The position numbers and the translations under genes are program-made. Of a stretch of DNA of 64,000 nucleotides, positions 5,904 through 22,801 are shown one piece after another. The notes beneath the pieces are model-generated. The model was given only the letters and a program-made list of their open reading frames with translations. It did no database searches and had not been told where the DNA came from. Origin of the DNA: an uncultured Candidatus Saccharibacteria bacterium (GTDB taxonomy: Bacteria; Patescibacteriota; Saccharimonadia; Saccharimonadales; JACDBH01); contig CAYSJS010000006.1 of the NCBI GenBank assembly GCA_964431415.1, positions 252-64,251 on the forward strand, in the 5' to 3' direction. Within the stretch, counting starts at the first letter, position 1; each line of letters opens with the position of its first letter.

Positions 5904-8900
5904 TTAAAATCCAAATATTTTCTGCAGTGAGTTAATGATGACGGTTAAGATACTGTCGGATGCGCGTCCGATGATGGTTGACTGTGGTTCGCCTAGGCCG
6001 GCATTGCCGCCGCGGTCTCGGGATACAGGTTGAACGCTGTAAACCTTAGAGGTTGGAAGGTCTGAGATGATCACGATATGTTCCGTGGTGAGTTCGCCGT
6101 CTTCTGAAGTCTTGCTGTTGAATATAGATACATTTGATCCTTCGCCGTAGGCCACTTGGCTGGAAGAAGGCTCGTCGGTCTTCCAGGATACGATGATCTG
6201 GCCTCTTGCCTCTGCGCCCGAACCGCGAATCGACGATTCCACAGTAATGTCACTTACCTTCGGCGGTCTAGTGTCGAGAGCGGTCTTGAATACCTGACGA
6301 TCAGACACCGCTAAGTTACCTGCGGCATCGCGGCTCTGTGCAAGCAAGAAGTATTCGCTGTCATCTTCGAGGTTGCTGATCGTTATCTCGTGGTCTGTTA
6401 CTAGGCCGGATTTTTGTACGTCAATACCAGAAGAATTCACTTTGCCGTAGGTAACGGTTGTATTAGAGGGTACATTTGTTTGCCAAGTTACACTCTGAGT
6501 ACTTGTAGGTTCCCCTGTAACCGGCTGGAATCGCAGGTTTATGATACGCGGTCTTTGCGGCGTGGTGAACGAGAAGACGTTGCCAAAATATTCGCTGCCT
6601 TCGCTGTCGAAAGCACTGATGCGGAAGAAATATTTGGTGCCGTCATCTAGACCACTTAATGCGAACGAGTATTTAGACTCCGCACTTGAGGTGTTTATCG
6701 ACTGCAGTCCGCCGAAGCTTTCACTCTTACCGTAGTACAAGGTCACCTTGCTGGCGCCGTTGCTAACAAACTGTATCACTGCCGAAGATAGGCTGACGCT
6801 CACTGTTTCGACCTCTTTAACAACCGGAGCCGGAGCGGTTGTAAAGGTAAACTCTTGGCTTGTGCCCGTGTTGCCGTCTTCGTCTGTCCACTTTGCGACG
6901 TAGTAATATGTGGTACCGGCCGAAAGATTATCGAGCTGAATAGTGTGTAGGTTGATCTGAGTCGAGTTACCGATCTCAGAGCTGCCATACTGACCGCTTG
7001 TCGTGCCCAGGGCTATCTTTGAATCGCTGGCGCGGTCTGTCGCCCAGGTGATGGTCGCTTTCTTGGTTGTTAGATTACTTGCCGAGGGGTCGCTTGTAAG
7101 AGTCGCCGGACTGGTAAATTTGCCCGTTGGCAGCATCTGCACAACGGTGCTTTCTGAGCCACAGTTGTTTGTGCTGTCACAAGCCCGCACTTTGTAGTAA
7201 TACAACTGTTGGTTTAATCCGGCGTCGATATACGTAGTACTGGTACTGCTGCCGACAAAAGAGAATGCAACGTTATTGGTCGACCGTAATACCTTGTAAC
7301 TTGCTATGCCCGCACCGGTGTCGACCGGCGAGTCCCAGGTGATTGCCAGCCGCCAGTTGCTGGTGGACTTGATCGACACGTCAACGATATCGGTGTTTGT
7401 AGGGATCCCCGGGCTAGGCGTGTTGGCAGTAAAATCAACGGTCGCGAAGCTGGAGTAGTTAATATTATCCGACTCATCCTTGGCCACGACATAAAACGTG
7501 TTAGTTCCCGGCTGTGTCGCGTATGGGCCCGAACCGAGGCTTGTCACGCCCGCAGAAGTGTAGGCGCAGGTAGTAGGGCTTGGAAGCGTATTAATGGTGT
7601 AGCAATAGGTAAGGTGATTAACGTCACCGACAAAACTATTTGGAGCATTCCAAGAGAATGCAAAGGCATTGGTCGTGTTTGATGCAGGCGTTGCATGTAC
7701 GTTCTGTGGCTCACTTGGAGAGCCAGCCGTGTTTACCTTTAGGGCGGCCGTTACGTAGCCGCTGGTTACGTTTCCGGCGTTGTCCCAGGTTCTAAAGTAG
7801 ACCGTATTAACTCCTTCAATAATATTGTTGAAGTCTGTAGGATCGACGGTTACATAGCTGCCGTCATCAGCGAGAAGGTCGGTCATGTCACCGCTGCCTG
7901 TATGGTTGTCGCCGTACCAGGAAGAGGCGTTGATGCGGTATTGCAGACCGGCTACGCCTGACGCCGTATCGCTTGTTGCTTGCCCGCCGCTTGTAGGCCA
8001 GGTGAGAGTGGTTGACTTTGTGTTAATGAATCCCGAGGGGGCCGTGATAAACCCGGGGTTTGTGGGCGGGGTGTTATCAAATCTAAAGTGAAACTCAGCA
8101 CTGGTTCCAAAAATATTGCCCGCGTTGTCTATGGCCCGAACCAGTAGATAGTAAGAGCTGTTAGATGTGGTAAGCGGCGAGCCCATATACCCAGCAGTAG
8201 ATAGATCTACTGAGTTTCCGGAAACGGCAAACTGACAATGGCCGGCTGTGTCTAAGGGTGAAGTGCCCAGGAGTCCTTTAGTGGTTGTCGGATCGGCGGA
8301 GCTGTTAGTGCCAAGATACAGGCAATACCCCTTTATGCCTGATCCGGTATCTGTGCCGGCCGTCCATGAAAAGTAAGGAGAAGAGCCGTTTGTCCAGTCG
8401 TTTGTATTCAGCTCCGTTCCGCCGTTTGTTTTATATCCGTGTAATGCTGAAGCGTTTGTATTCGGCGCTGACAAATCAGAGGTTGCGGCGAGGTCGATAG
8501 TGTTGAGGGTTACCTGCTGAGTCCCGTTGCCTTTTAATACAGCCTGCCATCTTATGCCATAGAGGGTAGCAGGAAAGGTGGCAATGTTGGTGCCTATGAC
8601 GGCTGCGGTATTAGACTGTGCTAATCCGGATGATGTTACCCAGCCGCTGTTCCAGTATTTCCATGTCGTACCATTATCATCAGATAACCGGTATGTAATC
8701 GCCCCGCCGTTAGCTGTTTCGTCGCTGGTGAAATTATCCCAATGAGCGACTCCGCTAGTGCGTACTGCGGCAGCTAAGGTAATAGCCTGGTGATTTGCGC
8801 TATACGGGAGTGTGTTAAAAGACCCGCGGGCAATGTTGCTGATCCGCAGCTCATCAAGCATACCTTCAAAAAAGGCTCGACTCCATCCCGTCTCAGAGGG

Positions 8901-11900
8901 CCCAAAGTTCGTACCGATCAGGGCAGGCTGCGTGGTGTCCGGCATCGTCAAGGAAACTGAAGTCTGTGCGTCTACTACGCCGTCTACGTAGAGTTTCATG
9001 GTGGTGCCGTCATACGTGGCGGCAATATGATGCCAGGAAGTGTCCTGAGAGCCGACGGTACTCTGCAGGAATCCGTTGTTTCCGTATGACCAAACAGCTG
9101 CATCGGTGTTGGCGCTGTCGCCAAGCCCGGCGTACAGCTTCCCTTTATAGACACTAAAGCTGCGCACCGATTCGGTGGCATTTGCGGTCCAGCTTGAGTT
9201 TGTGCCGCCGCCACCTATCTTTGACCAGCTGGAACCGTCCATTTCCCACACCTCACCGTCCCCGGCACTATTACCAAGCCCGGCATACAGCTTGCCATTG
9301 TAGGTAACAAGTGATTTTACCTGCTCGTATTGTCCGTCCAGCCAGCTGCCATTTACGCCGTCTCCGCCTACAATGCTCCAAGCCGTACCCGTCCATTCCC
9401 AGAGCTCGGCGTCTCCGGTTGAGTTACCAAGCCCGGCATACAGCTTGCCATTATAGGGGATCATCGACTCGACTTGTTCGTAAACGGTATTCCAGCTACT
9501 GTTCACGCCATCTCCGCCAATTTTCGCCCAAGACGAGCCATTCCATCTCCAAACCTCAGCATCTCCTGCGGTCAGGCCCAAGCCTGCATAGAGCTGACCA
9601 TCATACACCGATAATGAGCTAACCCGTTCGAAGTTTGTCGTCCAGCCGCTGTTTAAGCTGTCTCCGCCAATTTTCGCCCAAGACGAGCCATTCCACATCC
9701 ACACTTCCGCATCGTTAGCGGAGTTGCCTATCCCGGCGTAAAGATTGCCAGCGAGAACTGCCATAGAAGAAACTTCTTCAAAGTTTGTCGTCCAGCCACT
9801 GTTTAAGCTGTCTCCACCGATTTGGTTCCACGTTGAGCCGTCATATTTCCACACTTCCGCATCGTTTGCGCTCGTGCCTAACCCTACGTACAGATTGCCG
9901 CCGAAGCTGATCATACTTGTCACGTCCTCGTAAGTAGTCGCAGCCCAACTGTTATTTATTCCTTGGCCACCGACAATTTGCCACGAATTGCCGTCGAACC
10001 TCCATACCAGCGCGTTGCCGGCAACTGTGTTTCCGGTGCCAGCATAGAGGTAGCTTCCATACACTGTCATGCTTTCAACGTTTTGGATGTTATAACCGCC
10101 CCAGCTTTTGTTAATGTAACCACCGCCGATTCTTGTCCATGAGCCGCTCGTAAAGCTCCACACCTCGGCGTTGTTGCCTGTTGCTATTAGCCCGGCATAC
10201 AGAGTACTGTTACCGTAGCTCAATGCGTTCACTTCTATGTGCGTATTCGTAAAGCCGCCGTTCACGCCGTCACCGCCAATTTTCGCCCAAGACGAGCCAT
10301 TCCACATCCACACCTCGTTGTCCCCGGCAGATAAGCCTAGTCCGGCATACAGATTCGTTCCGTCATCGGTAAAGCTATAAACCCCTTCGTAAGATACTGC
10401 ATCCCATCCGCTGTTGAGATTATCGCCGCCGATCTTCGCCCAAGACGAGCCATTCCACATCCACACCTCACCGTCCCCGGCTGTTGTACCCAATCCAGCG
10501 TACAGATTGCCGCCAAAATAACGCATGCTGATCACCGACTCGTAGGTGGACGCCGCCCAGCTTGAGTTAACTGCGTCCCCGCCAATCTGGGTCCATGTTG
10601 TGCCAGTTAGTCTCCAAACGTCAGCGTCGCCAGCAGTACTGCCGAAGCCTACATAAATGCTTGAACCGTCGTTGGACATACTGTAGACCGCCTCGTAGCC
10701 GGTGGGGAAAGCGTTATAGGCTCCTGTAATACCAAAGCCTCCTACCCATGTCCAGGTTGAGCCATTCCATGCATACACCTTTGAGTCATTGGCGGTCGTC
10801 CCAAGCCCAACGTAGAGCGTGGAACCCAAAACGGTCATACTGTCTACCTCTTCTATGGTGTTAACTGCCCAGCTGTTATTTATGCCGTCACCGCCAATCT
10901 TAGTCCAGGACGTACAGCCGGTGCCCGTATCACAGCTCCAAACTTCACCGTCGCCAGCCGTTGAACCAAGCCCCGCGTAGAGAATTGTTCCACTGTAATT
11001 TAGCGTCGTTACGTTTTCGAAGGTAAGATCGGCCCAACTATTATTCTTGCCGTCCCCGCCAATCTGGGTCCACGTTGAGCCGTCCCATTTCCATACTTCA
11101 GCATCTCCAACTGCGTTGCCGAGTCCGACATACAGGTTACCACCGATAAACTGCTCGGCGTTTACAGAAAGCTTTCCGTTTAAATCCCAACTGTTCTTTG
11201 TGTCGTTGCCAGCTTGCTGTGTCCAGGTGGTCGCGGTCGAATTTGCTAGCTCATATGTTATTTTCCCGGTCTCTTGGTCGTAGTAGAGTTTGTACGAACC
11301 TTTGTCTATAACCGATTGTTTATGGTCGTGGCTGCCCGCACTAAAGGGTGCGCTAAATTTTGTCCACGCTTCAATACTGTTATCTCTAGATAATGAGGTG
11401 GCGGCAGAATCCGGTATGCTGGCGTATGCCGTTGAGCCGTTTAGTGAAAGGCCGTTGTTTAAGTTGCCGGTTATAAAGGTGCCATTGGTTACGGATGCAT
11501 TATTAGTATTGGATGAACCGTCGGTAGCTATGGCTCCACTTGCTTCATCGAAATGATAGAGGGCTGCGGTATTAACGTCACTCGTGTAATTCTGGGCTTT
11601 GAGGCGCGCACTTGTACCGCTGACTTCTACACCGGCATCCAGTGTAAAGCTGGCTGGTGCACTAAAATCCCAAGAATTAAATAGGTCGGATGCAGCGAGC
11701 ACCTTACCATAAGAAAGAGCGACCAAAGTGCCCACTACGGCAAGGTATACGCCCAATACCGAATAATGAATGTGCTTATGGAACTTCCAGTCATGCCAGT
11801 TTCGATACCAGTTCCATTTGTTGTATAGGTGATTATGGGGACGTTTCGCAAGGTGATGGTGTAAGAACCGAGTGGTGATCTTAGTATAGTGGTGCGTCTT

Positions 11901-12020
11901 TTTGACGGTAATGACAGTCAGTTTTTTGGTAAACCCCAGGAGCTTTTTTGAGTAGGGTTTAAAAACCCTCTTATAAAGAAGTTGCGTCTTCCTTGCTGTT
12001 TTATGAATTTTATCCCTCAA
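5904..12020 (-). CDS. Giant N-terminally anchored surface protein (2038 aa): basic/His-rich tail, TM helix, LamG-like module, about 14 tandem propeller-like blades, second LamG-like module, multiple Fn3/Ig-like domains
   Basis: Single uninterrupted ORF. TM helix YSVLGVYLAVVGTLVALSYG. Blade motif LYAGLGxxxGDAEVWxWNGSSWxKIGGDxxNSxW repeats about every 52 aa. LamG-like WHHIAATYDGTTMKLYVDG...LDELRISN. C-terminal repeats such as GTTYYYVAKWTDEDGNTGTSQEFTFTT are Fn3-like. Stop lies 2 nt from the ABC ATPase start. Confidence 0.85.
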   Translation of the reverse strand: MRDKIHKTARKTQLLYKRVFKPYSKKLLGFTKKLTVITVKKTHHYTKITTRFLHHHLAKRPHNHLYNKWNWYRNWHDWKFHKHIHYSVLGVYLAVVGTLVALSYGKVLAASDLFNSWDFSAPASFTLDAGVEVSGTSARLKAQNYTSDVNTAALYHFDEASGAIATDGSSNTNNASVTNGTFITGNLNNGLSLNGSTAYASIPDSAATSLSRDNSIEAWTKFSAPFSAGSHDHKQSVIDKGSYKLYYDQETGKITYELANSTATTWTQQAGNDTKNSWDLNGKLSVNAEQFIGGNLYVGLGNAVGDAEVWKWDGSTWTQIGGDGKNNSWADLTFENVTTLNYSGTILYAGLGSTAGDGEVWSCDTGTGCTSWTKIGGDGINNSWAVNTIEEVDSMTVLGSTLYVGLGTTANDSKVYAWNGSTWTWVGGFGITGAYNAFPTGYEAVYSMSNDGSSIYVGFGSTAGDADVWRLTGTTWTQIGGDAVNSSWAASTYESVISMRYFGGNLYAGLGTTAGDGEVWMWNGSSWAKIGGDNLNSGWDAVSYEGVYSFTDDGTNLYAGLGLSAGDNEVWMWNGSSWAKIGGDGVNGGFTNTHIEVNALSYGNSTLYAGLIATGNNAEVWSFTSGSWTRIGGGYINKSWGGYNIQNVESMTVYGSYLYAGTGNTVAGNALVWRFDGNSWQIVGGQGINNSWAATTYEDVTSMISFGGNLYVGLGTSANDAEVWKYDGSTWNQIGGDSLNSGWTTNFEEVSSMAVLAGNLYAGIGNSANDAEVWMWNGSSWAKIGGDSLNSGWTTNFERVSSLSVYDGQLYAGLGLTAGDAEVWRWNGSSWAKIGGDGVNSSWNTVYEQVESMIPYNGKLYAGLGNSTGDAELWEWTGTAWSIVGGDGVNGSWLDGQYEQVKSLVTYNGKLYAGLGNSAGDGEVWEMDGSSWSKIGGGGTNSSWTANATESVRSFSVYKGKLYAGLGDSANTDAAVWSYGNNGFLQSTVGSQDTSWHHIAATYDGTTMKLYVDGVVDAQTSVSLTMPDTTQPALIGTNFGPSETGWSRAFFEGMLDELRISNIARGSFNTLPYSANHQAITLAAAVRTSGVAHWDNFTSDETANGGAITYRLSDDNGTTWKYWNSGWVTSSGLAQSNTAAVIGTNIATFPATLYGIRWQAVLKGNGTQQVTLNTIDLAATSDLSAPNTNASALHGYKTNGGTELNTNDWTNGSSPYFSWTAGTDTGSGIKGYCLYLGTNSSADPTTTKGLLGTSPLDTAGHCQFAVSGNSVDLSTAGYMGSPLTTSNSSYYLLVRAIDNAGNIFGTSAEFHFRFDNTPPTNPGFITAPSGFINTKSTTLTWPTSGGQATSDTASGVAGLQYRINASSWYGDNHTGSGDMTDLLADDGSYVTVDPTDFNNIIEGVNTVYFRTWDNAGNVTSGYVTAALKVNTAGSPSEPQNVHATPASNTTNAFAFSWNAPNSFVGDVNHLTYCYTINTLPSPTTCAYTSAGVTSLGSGPYATQPGTNTFYVVAKDESDNINYSSFATVDFTANTPSPGIPTNTDIVDVSIKSTSNWRLAITWDSPVDTGAGIASYKVLRSTNNVAFSFVGSSTSTTYIDAGLNQQLYYYKVRACDSTNNCGSESTVVQMLPTGKFTSPATLTSDPSASNLTTKKATITWATDRASDSKIALGTTSGQYGSSEIGNSTQINLHTIQLDNLSAGTTYYYVAKWTDEDGNTGTSQEFTFTTAPAPVVKEVETVSVSLSSAVIQFVSNGASKVTLYYGKSESFGGLQSINTSSAESKYSFALSGLDDGTKYFFRISAFDSEGSEYFGNVFSFTTPQRPRIINLRFQPVTGEPTSTQSVTWQTNVPSNTTVTYGKVNSSGIDVQKSGLVTDHEITISNLEDDSEYFLLAQSRDAAGNLAVSDRQVFKTALDTRPPKVSDITVESSIRGSGAEARGQIIVSWKTDEPSSSQVAYGEGSNVSIFNSKTSEDGELTTEHIVIISDLPTSKVYSVQPVSRDRGGNAGLGEPQSTIIGRASDSILTVIINSLQKIFGF
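9060..11240 (-). repeat. Intragenic tandem repeat region (about 14 units of about 156 nt) encoding the blades of the giant protein
   Basis: Repeat periodicity is visible in the translation. At nucleotide level TTCGCCCAAGACGAGCCATTCCA occurs 4 times (near 9530, 9680, 10288, 10443). Confidence 0.8.
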
Positions 12021-12258: not shown

Positions 12259-12507
12259 ATGTTTTATGTATATGCAATCTTTAACAAACAAGTGGGTAAG
12301 CTGTATATTGGCCAGACGATTGATATTCGACAGCGTCTCATCGATCACAATGCGCATACTCACAAAGGCTATACGTCTCGATTCTTGGGCGAATGGGAGC
12401 TGATTTATACGGAATTCCTCCCTACTCGTACTGAAGCGCTTGTGCGAGAAAAGCAGCTAAAAAGTTTCAGAGGCAGGCAATTTGTTAAAAAATATATTCC
12501 GACTTAG
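12259..12507 (+). CDS. Small GIY-YIG nuclease superfamily protein (82 aa, UPF0213/COG2827-like)
   Basis: FYVYAIFNKQVGKLYIGQT (GIY...YIG), RLIDHN, and REKQLKSFRGRQFVKK (conserved Arg/Glu region). GGGAG Shine-Dalgarno 6 nt upstream. The stop codon TAG at 12505-12507 lies inside the tRNA. Confidence 0.8.
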   Translation: MFYVYAIFNKQVGKLYIGQTIDIRQRLIDHNAHTHKGYTSRFLGEWELIYTEFLPTRTEALVREKQLKSFRGRQFVKKYIPT

Positions 12508-12572
12508 CTCAGTGGTAGAGCGGGACGCTGTTAACGTCTAGGTCGCTGGTTCGAGCCCAGCAGTCGGAGCCA
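12498..12572 (+). tRNA. tRNA-Asn (anticodon GUU), CCA encoded
   Basis: Manual cloverleaf: acceptor TCCGACT/AGTCGGA, D arm GCTC-AGTGGTA-GAGC, anticodon arm GGACG-CTGTTAA-CGTCT, T arm GCTGG-TTCGAGC-CCAGC, discriminator G plus CCA. Confidence 0.9.
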
Positions 12573-12735
12573 GACCAAGCAGAGAAAAACGTAGACCCAG
12601 TTCTATGACCTACAATAACTTCTCTCCTTGGTCAGTCAAGAAAGAGTTGGGCCGACAACAGGGTACAAATGTTGGAACCGCCCGAAAGGGCGGTTCTTTC
12701 ATTTTACCCCTGTAATTTAGTTCGAACCCAGCCTC
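12564..12735 (+). repeat. Copy 1 of a roughly 170-bp tRNA-trailer module (tRNA 3' end, stem-loop, terminator, GGTTCGAACC box)
   Basis: Blocks shared with 16304-16468: CGGAGCCAGACCAAGCAGAGAAA, CGTAGAC.CAGTTCTA.GACC, ACTTCTCTCCTT.GTC, AAATGTTGGAACCG, CGGTTCTTTCATTTTACCCCTGT, GTTCGAACC. Confidence 0.8.
12674..12705 (+). terminator. Rho-independent terminator after tRNA-Asn
   Basis: GAACCGCCC-GAAA-GGGCGGTTC followed by TTTCATTTT. Confidence 0.7.
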
Positions 12736-12796
12736 TCCCGTCCTGAAGGAGCAAGCACCCCAAAAGCTGACCCGTTCCCTAGACCTGTGCGCTTGG

Positions 12797-13510
12797 TTAA
12801 ACGACCTGAACCCAGTCATTGACTTGGTTTGCTGAAGTGTCGGAAGACGGATCGACAGAACGTTTCCATGTAAGTTCCATGCCTTCGACTGCTCCTGAAG
12901 TTGGATTGATGTTTGTATAGTGGACAACTTGACCATTATGTATAGAATCTGTATCTACGTCTTCTATTTTGTCGAGAGCTAGTTTATCTAAAGGCGCATG
13001 TGCAGCCCATAAAACATCGCGGTGGGTCATAACTAGTATGTTATTCGTATTGGCGAGGTCGTTAACTAACTCTCCAAATCGGTGCGAGACAGCCAGGATA
13101 GATTCTCCGCCTGGTGGAACCCAGTAGAAAGGATGGTCTTCCATCGATTGATAACTATCCGGAAACTTTTCCTTATGTTGCTGCTTGGTTAGTCCCTGAA
13201 TATCACCGCGATTTCTCTCAGTGAGTCTGGGCTCTTTTATCCAATCTCCACCAAAGCCTAACGATTCTGCAGACTGTTTGGTGCGAATAAGTGGTGAAGT
13301 CAGGTATGTATCAAATTTCTTAAAGTCATAAACCTGCATGATATACTTTGCAATCCAACGTCCCGTTATCTGTGATTGTCTATGGCCAGCCTCAGTCTGT
13401 TTTTCATCGTTAGGGTGAATAAGGGCATGTGTGCCTAGCTTTCGCCTGACATCACCTTCGCTTTCACCGTGACGAACAAGTACTAAGTGTCGTGGCTGCA
13501 ATAACTCCAT
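12797..13510 (-). CDS. Histidine phosphatase family protein (phosphoglycerate-mutase-like)
   Basis: LVLVRHGESEGD (RHG motif), a downstream HRD-containing region (VMTHRDVL), 237 aa. Confidence 0.8.
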   Translation of the reverse strand: MELLQPRHLVLVRHGESEGDVRRKLGTHALIHPNDEKQTEAGHRQSQITGRWIAKYIMQVYDFKKFDTYLTSPLIRTKQSAESLGFGGDWIKEPRLTERNRGDIQGLTKQQHKEKFPDSYQSMEDHPFYWVPPGGESILAVSHRFGELVNDLANTNNILVMTHRDVLWAAHAPLDKLALDKIEDVDTDSIHNGQVVHYTNINPTSGAVEGMELTWKRSVDPSSDTSANQVNDWVQVV

Positions 13511-13513
13511 GAG

Positions 13514-14713
13514 TTAGACCATAGCATATAAACTTTTATCTTTGAGTCGTCGATGAATGTAGATGAGCACAACGAATGCAGCTGCTGCTAATAGTACAAG
13601 CGCCAAGGAGTAGGAATGCATACGTTGGTATGTAAAACCTAATATCAGTGGCGGCAAGAATCCGCCAAAGCCACCAGCAGCACCCACGATACCAGTAACG
13701 CTACCCATGACTTCTGGCTTTGCAAGCTTACCAACCATTGCAAATACAGCCCCATTAGCACAGCCAAGTACGAAGGCTAAAGTTAGATATGCGATGGTTG
13801 TCTGTGGCTCGAGGGTTGGCTGGAAGGCAACAAATGCCGCAAGAGGAATAATAGTGCAGAGAGTGGCTTGTACGACACGCCTGGCACCAACTTTATCACT
13901 CAGCCACCCACCAACCGGCCGTGCAATCGTGGCGAGTAATACAAATCCAGCCGCCCGTGTAGCAGCGTCAGTAAGCGATAAACCGTAAGAAACCTTAAGT
14001 AGAACAGGCAAATATACACCAAAAGCAACAAAAGCACCGAACGTTACAGCATAAACAGATGATAAATCCCATGTGAGCCGTAGCTTCGAAGCTGCAACTA
14101 TCCGCAAAATAGAAGATCCTTTTGCGGGCTTCCATCCCGGAGCATTTTTACCCCAAAATATAAAAACCATCGCCATAATTATCAATAAACTAGCTACAAT
14201 CATAAATGTCATATCTCTGTCAAAGTTATCTGCAAGTCGTGGTGTAGCAAATCCTGATAATGCCGTTCCGGCATTGCCCATACTGTACACACCTAGAACA
14301 AATCCTCTTCTCTCTGGCGGAAACCATGCGCTAATAAATGGGATACCAATAACAAATGCCGCGCCACCAAAACCGAGAAATATGGCGGCAACCACGATCT
14401 GCCAATAGTCGCCTGCGAACGTTAACGCAAAAACTGGGATTGCGGTCAATAAAGATATAACCGTAAACATCGTTTTACCACCAAATTTATCGGTTAACAT
14501 GCCAAATGCTATACGGCCTAAAGAACCAACGATAACTGGTACGGCCAGAAGTAACGATAGCATTACAGGGGTTAGAGTTAGTTCGCCGGCAAGCTTTGCA
14601 CCAAGGGGGCTCAATAGCGACCAAGCCCAAAAATTAATAATGAGTGCTAGTGTTGCGATACAAAGAGCAAAATATGCACCTTGAACTGACTTTATTTTTT
14701 TTGTTTTTGGCAT
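13514..14713 (-). CDS. MFS transporter, nitrate/nitrite-porter (NarK/NNP)-like
   Basis: 12 TM pattern; MFS motif A FGMLTDKFGGKT; Gly-rich NNP-like boxes SMGNAGTALSG and GIVGAAGGFGGFLPP. Start trimmed to MPKTKK (ATG at 14713) so that it does not overlap the upstream gene. Confidence 0.65.
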   Translation of the reverse strand: MPKTKKIKSVQGAYFALCIATLALIINFWAWSLLSPLGAKLAGELTLTPVMLSLLLAVPVIVGSLGRIAFGMLTDKFGGKTMFTVISLLTAIPVFALTFAGDYWQIVVAAIFLGFGGAAFVIGIPFISAWFPPERRGFVLGVYSMGNAGTALSGFATPRLADNFDRDMTFMIVASLLIIMAMVFIFWGKNAPGWKPAKGSSILRIVAASKLRLTWDLSSVYAVTFGAFVAFGVYLPVLLKVSYGLSLTDAATRAAGFVLLATIARPVGGWLSDKVGARRVVQATLCTIIPLAAFVAFQPTLEPQTTIAYLTLAFVLGCANGAVFAMVGKLAKPEVMGSVTGIVGAAGGFGGFLPPLILGFTYQRMHSYSLALVLLAAAAFVVLIYIHRRLKDKSLYAMV

Positions 14714-14717
14714 ATCA

Positions 14718-16184
14718 TTATATTGCTGCTTCCCAGTCAAAGAACACGGTGTCCTCACGGTAACCTCCACGTCCTTGACCAAAGTTTTCAAAACTCTCGA
14801 CAAACTCAATCGATTTTATATATTTTGCCATTTTATAGCCGTATTTCTTTTCACATCGCAAGCGAAGTGGTGCACCATACTCGATAGGTAGTGTTTTGCC
14901 GTTCATCTCATATGCAAGAATTGTCTGTTTATCATACATATCGCTGACACGTAATCCTGAATAATATGCCTGACCCTTGTCGTCGATATCGTAACAATGA
15001 AACAGCACATACTTTGCATTCTTCTTCGGCTTACAAATCTCCATAACATCGCTCATAGGCAAACCACCCCACTCAGCGACTGCAGTCCATCCCTGAATGC
15101 AATTATGCTTAGTGATTTGGTCTTGTTTACGTAAATCTTTAATATCTTGAAGTGACATTTCGATGGGATTATCGACTAGTCCGTAAACACTTAATATCCA
15201 ATCTTTGAAATGATTGGCTTTGAGTTTTTCATATTCTTCAGATTTTGGAGGATAGCCATTGACTCTAAAGAACGGTGAAATGTCTTTTTTTGTGTAGTGC
15301 TGATTAGACTTCATTCTTCCGAACAATAGACGCACCACAGGCGTATAAAACTTCGTGAGGATTCGTCGTAAGCGTACTTGATCGCCAAGTGTGAAAAATG
15401 AAACCCAAATATTAAAGGCAACTAGCAAAATCAGCGCCATCAAGAATATTGTGAGCGCCAGGGCAAAATCTACATCTGTGTTGCCTAGTGTTATACGTTT
15501 TACGCTATCGTAGAAGTGGAAACCAAGCGCCATTGTTACGTGCACGAGTATGAATAGCGAGAACAGAACCATCGCAATAAAGTGCAAACTCCTCGCAACC
15601 TGACGACGACCGCCAAATAGCTTGAGAAATCCTGGGTGTTTTGCTACCAGTGCTGGGGATAGCGCTAAACCAGTAATAATTGCTAACGGCGCCAGTATGA
15701 AAACCACACCTGCATAAGTTAGTTGCTGCAGGGCGTTATATGTCGCACCCTCTGAAGGCACGTTTAGCGTCAAATATTGGTACATGGTATCAATTGCGCG
15801 CGAGAAAACACCAATGTCAGTAGGGATCAAACGCTGCCATTGTCCGCTGAAGAACAAAAAGCTCATGTAAATTAAGCCCGTTATTACCCAGATGATAGCT
15901 ACTGTGAAGTGCCAATGTCGTGCAGAACCCAAGTTATGGGTACCGCCAGGTAATGCAAGCTTACCTGGTTCTTCTGCTTCATCTAGAGATGTCCAAAGCT
16001 TATCCTTGGGCATAATTTTCTTACCAAAACGTAACCAGTGATTGTCGTCTTTGGTATCATCGGTCCAGTACAGTTTAGGGTGATCAAAAAGTATTTGTAT
16101 ACCGCTCCGAATAAGCAAGACGAGGCAGAATAGATTAATCAAATGTAGAATTATTATAAATATTGGCAGATGTAGCGTTTCCAT
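14718..16184 (-). CDS. Fusion of a cytochrome-b-like membrane domain with a molybdopterin-binding oxidoreductase domain (sulfite-oxidase/MsrP family)
   Basis: The N-terminal 280 aa have 5-6 TM helices with conserved His residues. The C-terminus ITKHNCIQGWTAVAEWGGLPMSDVM...YEMNGKTLPIEYGAPLRLRCEKKYGYKMAKYIKSIEF matches the Mo-pterin oxidoreductase domain. Confidence 0.7.
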   Translation of the reverse strand: METLHLPIFIIILHLINLFCLVLLIRSGIQILFDHPKLYWTDDTKDDNHWLRFGKKIMPKDKLWTSLDEAEEPGKLALPGGTHNLGSARHWHFTVAIIWVITGLIYMSFLFFSGQWQRLIPTDIGVFSRAIDTMYQYLTLNVPSEGATYNALQQLTYAGVVFILAPLAIITGLALSPALVAKHPGFLKLFGGRRQVARSLHFIAMVLFSLFILVHVTMALGFHFYDSVKRITLGNTDVDFALALTIFLMALILLVAFNIWVSFFTLGDQVRLRRILTKFYTPVVRLLFGRMKSNQHYTKKDISPFFRVNGYPPKSEEYEKLKANHFKDWILSVYGLVDNPIEMSLQDIKDLRKQDQITKHNCIQGWTAVAEWGGLPMSDVMEICKPKKNAKYVLFHCYDIDDKGQAYYSGLRVSDMYDKQTILAYEMNGKTLPIEYGAPLRLRCEKKYGYKMAKYIKSIEFVESFENFGQGRGGYREDTVFFDWEAAI

Positions 16185-16269
16185 ATATATAAATATACCG
16201 CTTATCTATTATTATTGATAACACTACACAAATTAACAGATGTAAGCTAGTATGAAGCGAGCCTAAAAT

Positions 16270-16312
16270 CAGGTGGTAGAATCACTTGGTTCGAATCTGG
16301 TTGCCGGAGCCA
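16270..16312 (+). pseudogene. tRNA-like remnant (D-loop-like and T-arm-like segments, acceptor 3' strand plus CCA, no anticodon arm)
   Basis: TCAGGTGGTAGAATCACTTGGTTCGAATCTGGTTGCCGGAGCCA. There is no matching 5' acceptor strand upstream, and it runs directly into trailer-module copy 2. Confidence 0.45.
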
Positions 16313-16468
16313 GACCAAGCAGAGAAACTCGTAGACTCAGTTCTACGACCAAGAATTACTTCTCTCCTTAGTCTTACGAATAAGATTTTCTCAAAAAGAA
16401 GATTGAAATGTTGGAACCGTCAGAAATGGCGGTTCTTTCATTTTACCCCTGTTGTTTGGTTCGAACCT
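16304..16468 (+). repeat. Copy 2 of the roughly 170-bp tRNA-trailer module
   Basis: See copy 1. Includes a terminator hairpin whose differences from copy 1 preserve pairing. Confidence 0.8.
16413..16444 (+). terminator. Rho-independent terminator (copy 2 of the trailer module)
   Basis: GAACCGTCA-GAAA-TGGCGGTTC followed by TTTCATTTT. Relative to copy 1, one pair changes C:G to A:T (both sides changed) and one changes C:G to T:G. Confidence 0.65.
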
Positions 16469-16548
16469 TGTCCTTCATTTGCCTTAGCAACAAGTAGCCA
16501 AAAACAGACCTGTTTCCATGATAGTAAATTGCAAACTATAATATATTC

Positions 16549-17499
16549 ATGAATTCTTACCAAATTCACTCGATCCTTGAGTCACCCGATGCCTGGCTTT
16601 TTAGTGCTACGACCTCACCAAAGATTTGCAAAGAACTCGAATTTGTTGATCCAAAAGAGCATGGAAAAACACGACATCTTGTAAGTTACGAATGCGAAGC
16701 GGAAAACTTGAATGGGGCGTGGAAAAGCTTCTATAAAGTTGTCACTGAATTTCTTGATGCGGCAGTATTTTATACAACCAGCTATATTTCATTTCTTGAT
16801 TGGAACCACGTAGTTATTAATACCACCCAGAATGTTTCATTAATCTCACTTTATGAGAGGACCTTAGGAACCTCCCTAGATTTTTATAGCGAAGAACGAA
16901 CCGATAGTGTGCAAAATATCCGAGATTTCGCCCAAAAAGATATCCGTCTCGCAAACTTTTTACATTGTTATCGCATGGCGGTTCTAGTTGACTCACCAGA
17001 AACGTACGATGCATATGAAAAGTACTTAATTCTTGCGTGTGAGGCACTTGCCGGAGAGATCAAAGACGTAGACGGTAATGTTAAGTACGACAGAAAACGG
17101 CTTCAAAGCATTCTTGGGAAAGAGCTACACAAAAAGTTCTTCAGTCATGTTGATGGCACATCGGGTAAAACTGTAAGGAATGCGCATTTTCATCTTGGTA
17201 AAGTAATGGTGACGGAGGGTAAGCCACGTAAAGTAATTGAGTTGGTTAATCAGCTTAGGCAGTTTATTGCCAGTGAGTACGGTATAACTGATTTACCTAT
17301 ACTCAGGATTGAGAATTCGCCCACTAGAGGCATGCATCGAGACGATGGTGGCATTGTAGTTATTAGAGGTCAGTACGACAATCCTCAAATACTCATGGAA
17401 AACTGTGAGCCCAATAAAGTATTTGATGATTTGATAGACAAGAAAGATTACGAAATACTATCAGGACCTGAGGCCAGCTCTGCTGTAAATTCTATGTAG
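16549..17499 (+). CDS. Hypothetical protein (316 aa) with an RNxxxH (Rx4H, HEPN-like) motif
   Basis: Long ORF in the AT-rich island. GKTVRNAHFHLG contains Rx4H. No other motif recognised. Its 3' end overlaps the convergent recombinase gene by 8 nt. Confidence 0.5.
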   Translation: MNSYQIHSILESPDAWLFSATTSPKICKELEFVDPKEHGKTRHLVSYECEAENLNGAWKSFYKVVTEFLDAAVFYTTSYISFLDWNHVVINTTQNVSLISLYERTLGTSLDFYSEERTDSVQNIRDFAQKDIRLANFLHCYRMAVLVDSPETYDAYEKYLILACEALAGEIKDVDGNVKYDRKRLQSILGKELHKKFFSHVDGTSGKTVRNAHFHLGKVMVTEGKPRKVIELVNQLRQFIASEYGITDLPILRIENSPTRGMHRDDGGIVVIRGQYDNPQILMENCEPNKVFDDLIDKKDYEILSGPEASSAVNSM

Positions 17500-18799
17500 C
17501 CTTTCTGAACCGTAATACACCTTTCTTTATCTCCATTGTCGTCTCAAATCCTTCCGCCAGAGCACCCTTCTCAAATTCCGTTCCGCTACTCAGCACGTAT
17601 CTTGAATATTCTACTAACGGTACGCTTAAATTTACCTCAACTTTATAGTGGTTTAGCAATGTTTTCGTTACATAGTAATGCTTGTCGACCTTAGCTTGTA
17701 GCTTATTGGTGATTTTAATCTTCTTATAATTAGCTTCGATGAAGGTCTGAAGCAGGTCGCAAAGATTGTTTTCATTAATATACTTTTCTTTACAATTTGG
17801 ATCTTTACGCCTTGTGCAGTTGTAGTAGACGAATCGTTTTACGTCTCCTTTTTTCAATGTCTTAAACTTCTCCTGTGCGGTAATATCTGCCCCGCATTGT
17901 CCGCATTTCAGTAATCCTCGGAATGCGAATGCTTTCGATCCCCAGATGCCTTTGTTAACGCCGCGAGTTTGCTGCACAAGATCGTATAACTCTTTAGAAA
18001 TGAGCGGTTTATGAGCCCCGTCATACCAAGGAGCATCAGGGGCTTGCGGATATTGAAACTTTCCGTAGTAGAACGGGGTCGTCAATATTACAAGTACTTG
18101 GCTCACACTTACTTGCTTACCGGATCTGTTAGTTAGACCTTGTTCGTCTAACCACGCCTTTATTCTTCGACCGCTCCATCGCTCATAGCCAGCTTTATGA
18201 AATGCTTCTCGTACTAGGTCGGCACGCTCAGGGTCAAGAACGATATCGTTGATGCCGCCTAATGCTCGATTCATATAGCCGAGTGGGGCAACGCCTGGAC
18301 GCCAACCCATTTCACATTTTGTCCTAATACCACGTTTTACATTGATACTCTTATTGTCATTCTCGAGTTTTGCTTGCGAGCACAATATCATCAGTAAGAA
18401 TTTTTCATTTGGGTTATTCGTGAAGGTTTGCGAATAAGTTCTTATGTGCAGTAATTTACCTTGATCCATGAGATCAACGACTGCTCCTAAGTCCCCCGCA
18501 TTTCTGCTTAGTCTATCGGGCGCCCATGTGAGAATAGCGTTATATTCTTCACTAGCTAAACCTTTTAGAAGTTTGTTATATACCGGGCGCTTGCCAGAGT
18601 CTTTCGCAGAGTGGCTCTCTTGTAATTCACAGACTACGTTAAGACCTTCATTCTCCGCAAGTGAACGCATCTCGGCCAGTTGCGAGTCGATGCTCATCGC
18701 TTGACGTTCGTCTGATTCACTCGATTTTCTAGCATACAGGCAGTACTTGAGTTGGATTTCTTTTTCCATCAAGGACAAAGGTACCGCAATATTGGGCAA
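17492..18799 (-). CDS. Large serine recombinase (resolvase catalytic domain, recombinase domain, zinc ribbon)
   Basis: YCLYARKSSESDERQAMSIDSQ (catalytic Ser region), LTWAPDRLSRN, central recombinase domain, and CGQCGADITAQEK...YYNCTRRKDPNC zinc ribbon. The real start may be the internal MEKEIQ. Confidence 0.85.
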   Translation of the reverse strand: MPNIAVPLSLMEKEIQLKYCLYARKSSESDERQAMSIDSQLAEMRSLAENEGLNVVCELQESHSAKDSGKRPVYNKLLKGLASEEYNAILTWAPDRLSRNAGDLGAVVDLMDQGKLLHIRTYSQTFTNNPNEKFLLMILCSQAKLENDNKSINVKRGIRTKCEMGWRPGVAPLGYMNRALGGINDIVLDPERADLVREAFHKAGYERWSGRRIKAWLDEQGLTNRSGKQVSVSQVLVILTTPFYYGKFQYPQAPDAPWYDGAHKPLISKELYDLVQQTRGVNKGIWGSKAFAFRGLLKCGQCGADITAQEKFKTLKKGDVKRFVYYNCTRRKDPNCKEKYINENNLCDLLQTFIEANYKKIKITNKLQAKVDKHYYVTKTLLNHYKVEVNLSVPLVEYSRYVLSSGTEFEKGALAEGFETTMEIKKGVLRFRKAT

Positions 18800-18844
18800 A
18801 GTCTAGCTGTAATTACACCTATAAAACAGATATAATGGTCAGTA

Positions 18845-21800
18845 ATGGAAGAGTCAGATAATATACGAGCCATTCATGCAACATTCTCTTACGGAGTAGT
18901 TTACGTTTATTCAATCCCGGGCGATCAACATAAGGGTCGTTTGAAAATCGGTGGTGCGACTCTGACCGCAGAAAAACCTACACAGCAATCTATTGATGCA
19001 GCTGCTCACGAACGCATAAAGCAGCAAACAAAAACTGCAGACGTGCCGTATAAGCTTGAGCACGCCGAGCTGACAGTTAGCAATAATGGGACTTACTTCT
19101 CTGATTACGATGTCCACGAAATACTAAAAAGATCAGGTTACGCCCGTAAATCAGAAAACACTAAAAACGCACACTCAGAATGGTTTGAAGTTAGTTTAGA
19201 AACAGCGAAGAGTGCGATCCAAGCCGCAAAAGAAGGACGAGAGGCTCTCACTACTTTAGAAAAAACTGGAACTAACAATTTTGAGTTTCCATTCCGCCCA
19301 AATCAACGTGATGCCATAGACAAAACAACCAAAGCTATTAAGCAGCACCGCAAACATTTTCTTTGGAATGCAAAGATGCGCTTCGGAAAAACATCTGCTG
19401 CTATGCAGGTAGCCAAAGAGAATGATATGAAAAAGATTCTCATCGTTACCCACCGCCCAAGTGTTAGTGCAGACTGGTATGATGATTTTAATAGGGTTTT
19501 TGCAGGTACAAACTATGAGTATGCTTCAAAAACGAAAGGGCAACAAATAAGCACTCTCGCAAGAGGCGACAAACCCTTCGTTTACTTTGCGTCACTACAA
19601 GATTTACGTCTTTCCAAACGAGTGGTAGAGGACGAAGCTGCCCAATCTCATGCCAGAGGATTTGATAAAAATGATGAGGTATTTGATACAACCTGGGACA
19701 TGCTCATTGTCGACGAGGCACATGAAGGTACTCAAAGTAACTTGGGTGATGCTACCTTTGCAAAAATCCCCGTTAATTTCACCCTACAACTTTCAGGCAC
19801 TCCATTTAACATCCTGCACAAACACGAGGAAAATGAGATTTATACCTGGGACTACGTCATGGAGCAAGAAGAAAAGCTGCACTGGGATGAACGTCATCAA
19901 GGTGTGCCTAACCCGTATGTAGAACTTCCTGCTCTTAGTATGTTTACCTATGACATAGACAAGTTCGCTAGTCATATCGGTAGCTTGGGCGAAAACTTTC
20001 ATGACGCGCTAGATGGTGCATTTAAGTTCCACGAGTTCTTCCGCGTACACAGGGACGATGACGGAAACGAGATTGCTGAATTTGTGCATGAGCAAATGGT
20101 CAAAAAGTTTCTTGATTTGTTAGTAGATAGCTCTATTCATACCAAGTTTCCGTATTCATCAGAAGAATATCGTAATCACAATAAACACTCACTCTGGCTG
20201 TTACCTAATCGTGTCAAAGTTATTGAAGCCATGGAAAAGCTACTTAAAGATCACTGGATTTTCGGATCCAACCAATTTGGGATAGTAAATATTTCAGGTA
20301 GCAATCGTGATGATGAAGAAGACAAAGACGCAAAAGACCGAGTAACGAAAGCTATCAAAAATCATGACTATACCATTACGCTAACGGGGCAAAGATTGAC
20401 TACTGGCGCATCTGTCCCGGAGTGGACGGCCGTATTCATGCTTTCAGACACAAGTAGCGCAACTACCTACTTGCAAACAGCATTCCGTTGCCAGACGCCA
20501 GCAAAGATTGATGGCAAACTTAAAACCCAGGGTTATGTATTTGACTTTGCACCAGACCGTACACTACGACTCGTCGCAGAGGCCATTGAGCTTAATCACA
20601 AATCTGGCAAAACTAATTCACCAGAACAAAAAGAAGCGATGAAACAATTTCTAAACTTCTGCCCAATCTTGGCTGCTGAAGGTGGCACGATGAAGCCATA
20701 CGATGTAGGCACCATGTTAGTACAGCTCAAAAAAGCCATTATTGAACGTGTCAGCAGGAATGGTTTTGACGACCCTAAACTGTACAATGACGAGTTACTT
20801 CAATTAGACGAACTTGCCCTCGAAAAGTTCAATGAGCTTAAGAAAATTGTTGGCTCTGCATCTGGTGAGCGAATAAACGAGATACCCGTTAATGACTTAG
20901 GTATGGATGAACTCGAGACCGCTAAAGCCGAGGAAGCCGAGCGTAAGAAGAAAAAGAAAGAACCGCTTACTCCAGAGCAGGAAGAAGCACTTAGAAGACT
21001 AAAAGAAGCTCGCGAGCAAAAACAAAGCGCCATAAGTATACTCCGAGCTGTCAGTATACGAATGCCGATGATGGTATACGGTGCTGACGTGTCTGTACGT
21101 GAAGATATAACCTTGGAAAAATTCATTGATCTAGTCGATGAAACGTCTTGGCAAGAATTTATGCCCGAAGGTCTGACTAAAGAAAAGTTCAGAGGTTTTA
21201 TCAAATACTATGATGAAGAAGTGTTTAGTGGAGTCGCTCATAGCATACGAGCAAAAGCATATGATTATGACGAGCTTCTTCCGGCTGAACGTATTCAGGC
21301 AATTGCTAACGTGTTTGCGACATTTAAAAACCCAGACAAGGAAACAGTTCTCACTCCTTGGAATGTCGTCAATCTACAGCTGTCATCAACGTTAGGTGGT
21401 AATGATTTCAGATCGCTTGTTAAAGATAAACCCGAGTGGAAAACAGCCGGTCAAGCAACACAAATATGGTCTCAGGAAGATGCCAAAATTTTAGAAATTA
21501 ACTCAAAATCAGGACTCTATCCATTGCTTGCCGCTTATAACATTTACTCCCGGCAGCTTATCAAACACAAAAAGCCAGAGGATAAAATCCATAGGCATTT
21601 GTGGAACGAGGTTTTGTCAAAAAACATTTTTGTCATCTGTAAAACCCCTATGGCCAAGACTATTACCGAACGAACTCTTGCTGGCTATTCAAAAGTAAGC
21701 ATGAATATTGTCTATATAGAGGACTTAATAGAGAAACTACGTCAAGAAGACACATATAAGAGTTATACTCTAAGAGATGAGTTGCGTGAAAAATTCAAAG

Positions 21801-22798
21801 TTGAGGGTAGCGATATGAAGTTTTCTGCAGTCGTAGGAAATCCTCCCTACCAGGTTAATACTGACACTAATTTTTCGGTGCCGGTATATCATTTGTTTTT
21901 CAACGCTGCAAAAGATCTGGACCCAGATTATGTAAGCCTAATTCACCCTGCTAGATTCCTTTTCAACGCCGGGGCAACGCCAAAAGAGTGGAATGCTCAA
22001 ATGCTCAACGACAAACATCTGTCGGTTCCTTTATACGAGCCAGACTCTCAGAAAATATTTTCAGGAGTAGATATTAAAGGTGGTGTTTGTATAACATTCT
22101 GGGATAAGAACAATCCGAAAGGCGGTCTTGGCGGAACTTTTATAGCTTTCAAGGAATTACGCGCCATTTTGGCAAAAACTAAAACAGGTGGATTTGATCA
22201 AATTGTCGGATCGAGGGGCGGAACACGTGCTAAACGATGGCTAGATAGTTTTGATAGATACCGCTCCTATTTTCCTTCAAGTGTATTCACAACTAACGCA
22301 GACTTATTTTCCGAATCTGCAGACGACCAACATCAAATAAAGCTTGTGGGGCTGGTTAATAACAAACGCATTGAACGTTTTGTAAGCAAAGATCTCGTGG
22401 ATGATAAAGACTTACTGAAATGGAAGGTCTTTATTCCTAAGTCGAATGGTACTGGCGCAATTGGTGAAATATTAAGTACACCCCTTACGGGGGAACCCCT
22501 TACGGGGTGTACTGAGTCTTTCATCCAAATTGGCTCGTTTGACAATAAGGATGAAGCAATGAACTGTATGAACTATATCAAGACTAAGTTTTGTCGAGCT
22601 ATGCTGGGTACACTTAAGGTTACACAAGATAATCCAAAAAGTACCTGGAAGAATGTACCTCTACAAGATTTTACCAATGCTTCTGATATAAACTGGTCGG
22701 AATCAATTGAAAATATCGACAAACAGCTATACGCAAAATACGGACTTAATGAAGAAGAGGTGGCCTTCATCGAAACTCGTGTCAAAGCCATGGAGTAG
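18845..22798 (+). CDS. 1317-aa fusion: GIY-YIG-like (T5orf172-type) N-terminal domain, SF2/ResIII helicase-type ATPase, Eco57I-type N6-adenine methyltransferase domain and TaqI-C-like specificity region
   Basis: aa 15-130: GVVYVYSIPGDQHKGRLKIGGAT...HSEWFEV. Helicase motifs AKMRFGKTSAAM (I), LIVDEAHEG (II), LQLSGTPF (III), YLQTAFRCQT (VI-like). Lys/Glu coiled linker. MTase motif I-like KILEINSKSGLY and motif IV FSAVVGNPPYQ. C-terminus ends ...IDKQLYAKYGLNEEEVAFIE, typical of Eco57I/TaqI-C families. Confidence 0.75.
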   Translation: MEESDNIRAIHATFSYGVVYVYSIPGDQHKGRLKIGGATLTAEKPTQQSIDAAAHERIKQQTKTADVPYKLEHAELTVSNNGTYFSDYDVHEILKRSGYARKSENTKNAHSEWFEVSLETAKSAIQAAKEGREALTTLEKTGTNNFEFPFRPNQRDAIDKTTKAIKQHRKHFLWNAKMRFGKTSAAMQVAKENDMKKILIVTHRPSVSADWYDDFNRVFAGTNYEYASKTKGQQISTLARGDKPFVYFASLQDLRLSKRVVEDEAAQSHARGFDKNDEVFDTTWDMLIVDEAHEGTQSNLGDATFAKIPVNFTLQLSGTPFNILHKHEENEIYTWDYVMEQEEKLHWDERHQGVPNPYVELPALSMFTYDIDKFASHIGSLGENFHDALDGAFKFHEFFRVHRDDDGNEIAEFVHEQMVKKFLDLLVDSSIHTKFPYSSEEYRNHNKHSLWLLPNRVKVIEAMEKLLKDHWIFGSNQFGIVNISGSNRDDEEDKDAKDRVTKAIKNHDYTITLTGQRLTTGASVPEWTAVFMLSDTSSATTYLQTAFRCQTPAKIDGKLKTQGYVFDFAPDRTLRLVAEAIELNHKSGKTNSPEQKEAMKQFLNFCPILAAEGGTMKPYDVGTMLVQLKKAIIERVSRNGFDDPKLYNDELLQLDELALEKFNELKKIVGSASGERINEIPVNDLGMDELETAKAEEAERKKKKKEPLTPEQEEALRRLKEAREQKQSAISILRAVSIRMPMMVYGADVSVREDITLEKFIDLVDETSWQEFMPEGLTKEKFRGFIKYYDEEVFSGVAHSIRAKAYDYDELLPAERIQAIANVFATFKNPDKETVLTPWNVVNLQLSSTLGGNDFRSLVKDKPEWKTAGQATQIWSQEDAKILEINSKSGLYPLLAAYNIYSRQLIKHKKPEDKIHRHLWNEVLSKNIFVICKTPMAKTITERTLAGYSKVSMNIVYIEDLIEKLRQEDTYKSYTLRDELREKFKVEGSDMKFSAVVGNPPYQVNTDTNFSVPVYHLFFNAAKDLDPDYVSLIHPARFLFNAGATPKEWNAQMLNDKHLSVPLYEPDSQKIFSGVDIKGGVCITFWDKNNPKGGLGGTFIAFKELRAILAKTKTGGFDQIVGSRGGTRAKRWLDSFDRYRSYFPSSVFTTNADLFSESADDQHQIKLVGLVNNKRIERFVSKDLVDDKDLLKWKVFIPKSNGTGAIGEILSTPLTGEPLTGCTESFIQIGSFDNKDEAMNCMNYIKTKFCRAMLGTLKVTQDNPKSTWKNVPLQDFTNASDINWSESIENIDKQLYAKYGLNEEEVAFIETRVKAME

Positions 22799-22801
22799 CC
22801 C

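Follow-up and report, generated by a model that had tools for sequence, protein, structure and literature searches.

The single-copy tRNA-Asn gene of an uncultured Candidatus Saccharibacteria bacterium is followed by a conserved module, here called B, that recurs on the far side of three cargo genes. Our analysis of this locus suggests that such repeats probably form the left ends of adjacent units, site-specific integrative cassettes arrayed in tandem behind tRNA-Asn, of which those without a recombinase would be moved in trans. The window, as we call the whole stretch of DNA analysed, comprises 64,000 nt (contig CAYSJS010000006.1, positions 252 to 64,251); the assembly to which it belongs (GCA_964431415.1, here G000) amounts to 1.1 Mb in 47 contigs, is 99% complete and holds only two copies of B, with one tRNA-Asn among the 35 tRNA genes found. 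From the T arm of the tRNA onward, positions 12547-12728 are repeated at 16287-16467 (182 nt, 78.6% identity, E 4.9e-36), and a profile built from relatives extends the likeness to 12786 in copy 1 and 16521 in copy 2. The repeat that an earlier note had described behind tRNA-Asn is therefore real and longer than claimed, B measuring ~222 nt and not ~170 nt.

A search of relatives resolved two separable conserved pieces instead of one repeat. B lies at 12566-12788 and 16306-16521 and always starts directly after GAGCCA; the second piece, A (~88 nt, 16225-16312), consists of a conserved 5' part followed by a pseudo-tRNA-Asn 3' part with GGAGCCA at its end. The tRNA-like remnant noticed earlier in front of copy 2 is real and belongs to this 88-nt module; the supposed decayed tRNA is itself a conserved element common to several genomes. 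The features of the locus are the following.

12498-12572, + strand: tRNA-Asn(GTT), found by ARAGORN and Rfam, the presumed integration target; its last 7 nt, GGAGCCA (12566-12572), are common to the end of A.
12573-12788, + strand: module B1, left end of cassette 1 (profile match E 8e-68).
12573-12586 paired with 12620-12633, + strand: long stem P1 of B1 (fold, and covariation in 58 copies).
12590-12610, + strand: inner hairpin of B1 and first GACCnnGTTCnnnGACC motif.
12646-12659, + strand: variable hairpin of B1.
12667-12704, + strand: terminator-like hairpin of B1, placed by the terminator scan at 12674-12697.
12706-12788, + strand: conserved 3' block of B1, with the second motif copy inside (12769-12785).
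12797-13510, - strand: cargo gene 1, histidine phosphatase (His_Phos_1) of 237 amino acids (Pfam E 3.5e-26).
13514-14809, - strand: cargo gene 2, MFS transporter, listed open reading frame (ORF) of 431 amino acids (Pfam MFS_1, E 9e-52; homologue in L170).
14718-16184, - strand: cargo gene 3, fusion of cytochrome b561 and molybdopterin oxidoreductase domains, 488 amino acids (Pfam Ni_hydr_CYTB and Oxidored_molyb).
16225-16312, + strand: module A, right end of cassette 1 (profile match E 2e-24; 11 copies aligned).
16313-16521, + strand: module B2, left end of the next unit (profile match E 4e-52), with a terminator-like hairpin at 16413-16436.
16549-17499, + strand: cargo ORF of unit 2, 316 amino acids, without Pfam family and without homology to those found ahead of the recombinase elsewhere.
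17492-18799, - strand: large serine recombinase, far end of unit 2 (Pfam Resolvase, Recombinase and Zn_ribbon_recom).
18778-18815, + strand: motif conserved where recombinase units end on the right, composed of GTACCGC, a spacer of 10-12 nt, (T)AAGTCTAGC(C) and TGTAATT.

The true start of the MFS transporter probably lies near 14713, because its homologue in a genome of a different family (G294) has 399 amino acids, and that of the recombinase, listed with a TTG start, probably lies further downstream; cargo gene 3 has homologues with 89-93% amino-acid identity in L170, L181 and L185. Module A is made up of the conserved 5' part (AATTAACAGATGTAAGCTAG...) and a pseudo-tRNA that lacks an anticodon arm but has a D-loop-like piece, a T arm and the acceptor 3' strand; its 3' part is identical to a real tRNA-Asn allele of another genome. 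It is found also without B behind it, and alone it folds no better than shuffled sequence (z -0.2).

The architecture was surveyed in the window and in 55 further loci from other genomes, in which the order tRNA-Asn, B-cargo-A, B-cargo-A and so on is recurrent and the cargo varies. Complete units from B to A number 22 and range from 1.0 to 9.1 kb. Among 69 copies of B with an intact 5' end, 27 adjoin a tRNA, 18 adjoin A, 22 adjoin other sequence and two lie at contig ends, and GAGCCA is invariant in all 58 aligned distinct full-length copies; B ends just past a second copy of the motif GACCnnGTTCCnnGACC. When the sequence upstream of 22 copies picked by eye was inspected, seven carried tRNA-Asn, a tRNA-Asn half or A and 15 other sequence, mostly decayed T-arm-like remnants, with GAGCCA at the end in 22/22. 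One genome departs from the usual target: in G105 (L178, 7212-7285) B adjoins a genuine tRNA-Gln(CTG) with the same 3' end, both this tRNA and tRNA-Asn ending in GGTTCGAATCC-N6-CGGAGCCA. Elsewhere the cargo comprises single Fic genes, a P-type ATPase with DUF305, an MMPL transporter with ArsR, LD-carboxypeptidase and restriction-modification genes, a variable set that is typical of accessory genes.

The limits of one unit are set precisely by DNA from another study. A contig of 9161 nt from a DNA sequencing run (X5) matches window positions 12566-16312 with nine differences in 3747 nt and diverges exactly at both ends, carrying a different tRNA-Asn allele on the left and, after 16312 on the right, a sequence that is not B2; a contig from an RNA library (X18) also departs from the window directly after 16312, and contigs of other organisms depart from the B sequence at 12788. 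Positions 12573-16312, that is B1, the three cargo genes and A, are thus one discrete mobile unit. Since the match to X5 ends sharply at both sides, the exchange would have taken place within the 7-8 shared letters of GGAGCCA, which argues for site-specific over homologous recombination. As in islands of the Islander type, an intact tRNA-Asn stands at one end and a displaced tRNA 3' part at the other, both ending in GGAGCCA. The earlier suggestion of att-like island boundaries is therefore upheld in a refined form, with GGAGCCA on both sides of the unit, and corrected in one part, as copy 2 forms the left boundary of the unit that follows and not the right boundary of cassette 1. Other contexts of the site were seen elsewhere: in G001 the tRNA-Asn is present without B, and in X5 the cassette stands behind another tRNA-Asn allele without B2. 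Contig joints at 12645>16407, 12700>16440 and 16452>12769 were considered as excision products and rejected, as they represent other variants of B.

Units of this kind have passed between families. G294 contains window positions 12493-16517 at 88% nucleotide identity and shares nothing beyond; its B1 is 99% identical and its histidine phosphatase has 100% amino-acid identity. Fic cassettes among four families show 75-94% amino-acid identity, and the housekeeping protein SmpB among four genomes, two of them also in the Fic set, 58-68%; in G030 and G043, the sole pair compared on both proteins, the values are 77.6% for Fic and 62.3% for SmpB.

Module B is strongly structured. The long stem and its inner hairpin fold as the earlier note described, with free energies of -48 kcal/mol in copy 1 (z -5.4) and -40.8 kcal/mol in copy 2 (z -4.9), and a terminator scan places terminator-like hairpins on the + strand at 12674-12697 and 16413-16436. 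The loop-closing pair of the terminator differs between the two copies as claimed, C:G in the first and A:T in the second; among 58 copies, A-U closes the loop in 30 and C-G in 23. A larger alignment, for which an RNAalifold consensus was computed on 58 copies of B, does show covariation: standard pairs fill 90.6% of cells as against 86.7% in shuffles (0/500 reach this value) and 39-48% with the partners slid, and the covariation score is 0.199 as against 0.139 in shuffles (0/500), figures that are somewhat overstated as the shuffles ignore relatedness and the structure comes from the same alignment. The 13 pairs of P1 are formed in 93.9% of cells, with changes on both sides in six of them, and the 15 pairs of the terminator helix in 95.3%, with changes on both sides in five.

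Mismatch types reveal the strand on which part of this structure is read. G-U cells exceed A-C cells in the terminator (119 vs 11) and in the inner hairpin (47 vs 18), and both are therefore read on the tRNA strand, whereas the two types are balanced in P1 (23 vs 21), a symmetry that would allow P1 to work as DNA or as an RNA read from one strand or the other. Pairing is the same whatever precedes B, whether a tRNA (P1 94.3%, terminator 95.7%), A (94.1% and 93.8%) or other sequence (93.0% and 94.2%), and the fold therefore belongs to every unit and not only to the trailers of live tRNAs. At the gathering score of Rfam 15 only the tRNA was detected, and no match in B had an E below 8; a promoter scan found none inside B and a single one straddling the end of B2. 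The palindromic box GGTTCGAACC mentioned in the earlier note is present in copy 2, but copy 1 has AGTTCGAACC and most relatives GTTCTAACC, and the palindrome is therefore not a conserved feature. In two other loci (L035, 14860-14905; L175, 12720-12765) the terminal A is directly followed by AGGTTAGAACCAGGATTACAGAGG, which is the B box CCTCTGTAAnnnnGGTTCTAACC in reverse complement; this stretch contributes to a terminator hairpin and may be an inverted copy of a protein-binding box.

Cassette 1 contains no integrase gene, and the next unit holds a large serine recombinase. Orthologues of this recombinase with at least 70% identity occur in 29 of 401 genomes, and by our own count from the tables B is present in 15 of these 29 as against 58 of the 372 others. 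Orthologue and B share a contig in 11 genomes, in ten of which (the exception being G321) the gene lies 0.5-12 kb downstream of B on the opposite strand, and the recombinase keeps the same position relative to B in L172, L173, L180 and L186. Three genomes of three families have in common a 5.7-kb unit with 88-90% identity, composed of B, a P-type ATPase, DUF305, an ORF of 206 amino acids and the recombinase; the shared sequence opens with the first base of B and stops 20-40 nt beyond the start of the recombinase. At that right end the motif GTACCGC-N10-12-AAGTCTAGCC is kept in six loci, and the homology of the units between genomes stops there. A 24-nt stretch of the window just right of the recombinase unit had no match in metagenome contigs, among which no alternative right junction was found. 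The ORFs just before the recombinase were considered as a directionality factor and rejected, as they are not homologous between unit types. As for other recombinases, G000 has one tyrosine recombinase (the sole PF00589 match, contig C9), which is read as a putative Xer-like enzyme, and six serine recombinases; Pfam scans of ORFs found no tyrosine integrase at the locus or near the arrays. A second large serine recombinase of this genome (G000:C5:72888-73541; L003/L214) is 46% identical to the first and has a similar upstream motif, CTGGACTT...GCGGTACCTTTGTCC; ~100 nt further upstream lies a 19-nt match to the B box, CCCCTGTAATTTAG.

On the reading that we prefer, a unit would consist of B, cargo and a right end, the latter being either A or the large serine recombinase gene with its short conserved motif. 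Units would enter by site-specific recombination, with the crossover within the last 7-8 nt of the tRNA (GGAGCCA), so that the tRNA would be left intact and B would become its new trailer; A would re-create a tRNA-like target at the far end, on which further units could stack and the array grow. The 5' half of B, with the long covarying stem and a terminator of Rho-independent type on the tRNA strand, most likely both stops and shapes transcripts that arrive from the tRNA or from the cassette before it, and the 3' half, together with the repeated GACCnnGTTCCnnGACC motif, is most likely protein-binding DNA for the recombination machinery. Units with a serine recombinase would be autonomous and recombinase-less units such as 12573-16312 would be moved in trans, the large serine recombinase being the best candidate for the enzyme.

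Several observations weigh against this proposal. Where GGAGCCA would be expected, the recombinase units close with ...AAGTCTAGCC and then TGTAATT or TAATT, their right end is not tRNA-like, and by eye the two kinds of right end fit no single attP/attB pair with a shared crossover dinucleotide. In or beside the arrays of 15 loci (L034-L048) no recombinase was found save a broken one in L047; an orthologue of at least 70% identity is missing from 58 of the 73 genomes with B, and 14 of the 29 genomes with an orthologue showed no B. Neither an excised circle nor a precise empty site, with tRNA-Asn joined to B2, was observed. To these points are added the lack of strand bias in P1 and the nature of the contigs from RNA libraries (X15, X16 and X18), which cover B, A and cargo and, as contigs, cannot show transcription, ends or strand. 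The depth of X15 is higher over B (92-99 vs 27-34), which may be a pile-up from many organisms.

Part of this evidence would also be expected if B and A were homology arms, and cassettes were swapped by RecA-type homologous recombination between naturally competent Saccharibacteria without a dedicated recombinase. Most arrays lack a recombinase, the limits of homology between G000 and G294 coincide with outer borders of conserved modules (where the tRNA begins and where B2 ends), contigs are often broken within B, as is expected of a repeat, and natural competence is reported for Saccharibacteria (PMC10633639, PMC10187176). We nevertheless regard homologous exchange as an improbable explanation, given that the near-identity of X5 reaches the outermost bases of B1 and A with no more than 7-8 nt shared on either side, and that three recombinase units have the same sharp right end next to unrelated flanks. 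No greater credit is given to the view that B is a host small RNA or tRNA-processing element, a co-transcribed trailer of ~60-130 nt spread by its usefulness with the cassettes riding along. The strong fold, the compensatory changes, the + strand G-U signature of the terminator helix and inner hairpin, the position directly behind the CCA of a single-copy and presumably essential tRNA, and the coverage of B by RNA-library contigs would all fit such an RNA. However, B is absent from 328 of the 401 genomes of the order, and in its place relatives have plain terminators behind tRNA-Asn; pairing is as good behind dead remnants as behind live tRNA (P1 93.0-94.1% vs 94.3%; terminator 93.8-94.2% vs 95.7%); no Rfam family matches; and the conserved 85 nt past the terminator would fall outside such an RNA. 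The related proposal of the earlier note, a structured trailer RNA duplicated with its tRNA, keeps its compensatory changes and its strand signature in the terminator hairpin, but the event is not a local duplication, B being an element-borne end in 73 of 401 genomes of the order that pairs equally well where no live tRNA precedes it.

Less probable still is single-strand movement by an HUH enzyme (IS200/IS605-type or REP/RAYT-like), with insertion 3' of GAGCCA guided by subterminal hairpins, P1 on the left and the T-arm-like one on the right. Insertion that keeps to the 3' side of a single short sequence and to a single orientation, hairpins near both ends with structure rather than sequence conserved, and one Y1_Tnp ORF 0.8 kb past an A module in L175 would be consistent with it. 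The candidate transposase was rejected because G000 has no Y1_Tnp (PF01797) match and because our own tally gave no enrichment among genomes with B (23/73, vs 87/328 without). A bolder version of the cassette model would see here an integron-like gene-capture platform of the Saccharibacteria's own on the tRNA-Asn 3' end, in which cassettes without a recombinase pass from family to family and the folded B participates in the recombination itself. B could then be more than a terminator and act as single-stranded DNA entering by natural transformation, or as an RNA working with the serine recombinase. We think this unlikely, though a shade less so than homologous exchange or a host RNA, and the preferred reading is still that of integrative cassettes stacked behind tRNA-Asn, with the recombinase supplied in trans.

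The distribution of B is patchy across families of the order, where it was found in 73 of the 401 genomes sampled (58 of the 323 of good quality), often at contig ends. In a sample of 401 genomes from the phylum it occurred in five, all of the window's order, and none outside that order; the motif at its start had no exact match in IMG/VR. A scan of contigs with a loose pattern, used for organism labels only, yielded at least 121 loci, 13 of them with true B among the matches listed; eight of these true-B loci were titled, six as Candidatus Saccharibacteria, one as Patescibacteria group and one as Candidatus Dormiibacterota. The last (L073) has one true copy of B (E 1.7e-37), and its contig may be mis-binned or may reflect a transfer. 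Tallies of 44/61, 87/401 and 110/401 take in genomes marked unpublished (G015, G289, G314 and G344). In G001, which has no B (L014, reverse complement ~1494-1760), a plain terminator stands behind tRNA-Asn and a 17-nt direct repeat of the tRNA 3' end, CCCAGTCCCCCGAGCCA, occurs ~190 nt further; this appears to be a different small insertion at the same hotspot.

The surroundings of the cassettes in the window include further genes. Just upstream of tRNA-Asn, a small stand-alone GIY-YIG nuclease ORF of 82 amino acids (12259-12507, + strand) ends inside the first bases of the tRNA, and a GIY-YIG ORF occupies the same place in G011 (L039, 5139-5453). Further upstream, 5904-12020 (- strand) encodes a protein of 2038 amino acids with laminin-G, fibronectin-III and purple-acid-phosphatase N-terminal domains, whose gene has internal nucleotide repeats (9807-9863 and 10574-10655 vs 11049-11132). 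About 45 nt past the recombinase unit begins a fusion of T5orf172, ResIII helicase and Eco57I-type methylase domains of 1317 amino acids (18845-22798, + strand), followed by an ORF of 311 amino acids without Pfam family (22802-23737, + strand). GC content is low (0.40-0.43) as far as ~25 kb of the window, and the genes that usually form the right flank of arrays elsewhere lie at 24868-25401 (DUF1697) and 25886-26446 (Ham1); the whole island therefore probably extends over ~12573-24800. ARAGORN found 35 tRNAs and no tmRNA in the G000 assembly, although in relatives the gene for SmpB lies beside this locus.

In Saccharibacteria, as in other Patescibacteria, the genome is tiny and mobile elements are little known. 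One precisely bounded hotspot behind tRNA-Asn serves here for the swapping of accessory genes between families, the cargo seen including metal efflux, Fic proteins, restriction-modification, transporters and redox enzymes, and the conserved end modules offer a simple sequence handle to find such cargo in metagenomes. For these bacteria, which are hard to manipulate, a genetic system might be built on the site and the recombinase. A covarying hairpin and a terminator right after the CCA suggest, moreover, that an element inserting at the end of an essential single-copy tRNA must supply a working trailer.

In the literature on Saccharibacteria genomic islands, on tRNA and tRNA-Asn and on (serine) recombinases we found no publication on this locus, and the closest parallels come from other bacteria. 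The tycheposons of Prochlorococcus carry a tyrosine recombinase in 910 of 937 cases and a large serine recombinase in a minority; an integrase of their own defines them, in many cases together with replication genes (bioRxiv 10.1101/2020.12.28.424599). The units described here are like tycheposons in their integration at tRNA genes, with a full-length tRNA at one end and partial tRNAs at unit borders, in their adaptive cargo and in the repeated integration at one site that pushes older units deeper into the island. Unlike tycheposons, most units here have no recombinase, and Pfam scans of the ORFs in and around the arrays turned up no primase or replicative helicase; what holds the units together is a structured left module of 222 nt and a pseudo-tRNA module of 88 nt, and the hosts are Saccharibacteria.

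A similar arrangement is found in staphylococci, whose staphylococcal cassette chromosome (SCC) islands combine ccr large serine recombinases with pseudo-SCC units that lack ccr, all lined up behind rlmH (orfX) at its 3' end, the recombinase-less units presumably being moved in trans. Our arrays share with composite SCC islands a large serine recombinase, a place of insertion at the intact 3' end of a conserved gene, short direct repeats at unit borders and a tandem order that includes recombinase-less units, a likeness to ccr that concerns these features only and not orthology. They differ in their target, which is tRNA-Asn (tRNA-Gln in one genome) and not rlmH, and in borders that carry ~310 nt of conserved, partly folded sequence and not short repeats only. 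In streptococci, integrative and conjugative elements (ICEs) and cis-mobilizable elements (CIMEs) accrete at att sites. There, as here, att-flanked units without recombination genes stand in tandem with a recombinase-encoding element; in contrast, no conjugation genes were seen here, and the serine recombinase unit has just 1.3-5.7 kb.

In integrons, the gene of the tyrosine recombinase IntI lies next to the array (attI), and attC, an imperfect palindrome, recombines in the form of a folded single strand within which the crossover falls. Both systems are arrays of mostly small cassettes without their own recombinase at one fixed genomic site, with a border hairpin whose pairing, not sequence, is conserved. 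Unlike in integrons, there is no IntI near the arrays, the only tyrosine recombinase of G000 lying on another contig; the crossover would be outside the hairpin, border sequences are conserved at 70-99%, and cargo stands in either orientation and may span several genes. Compared with attC, P1 covaries without strand bias and the unit border lies just 5' of P1 and not inside it.

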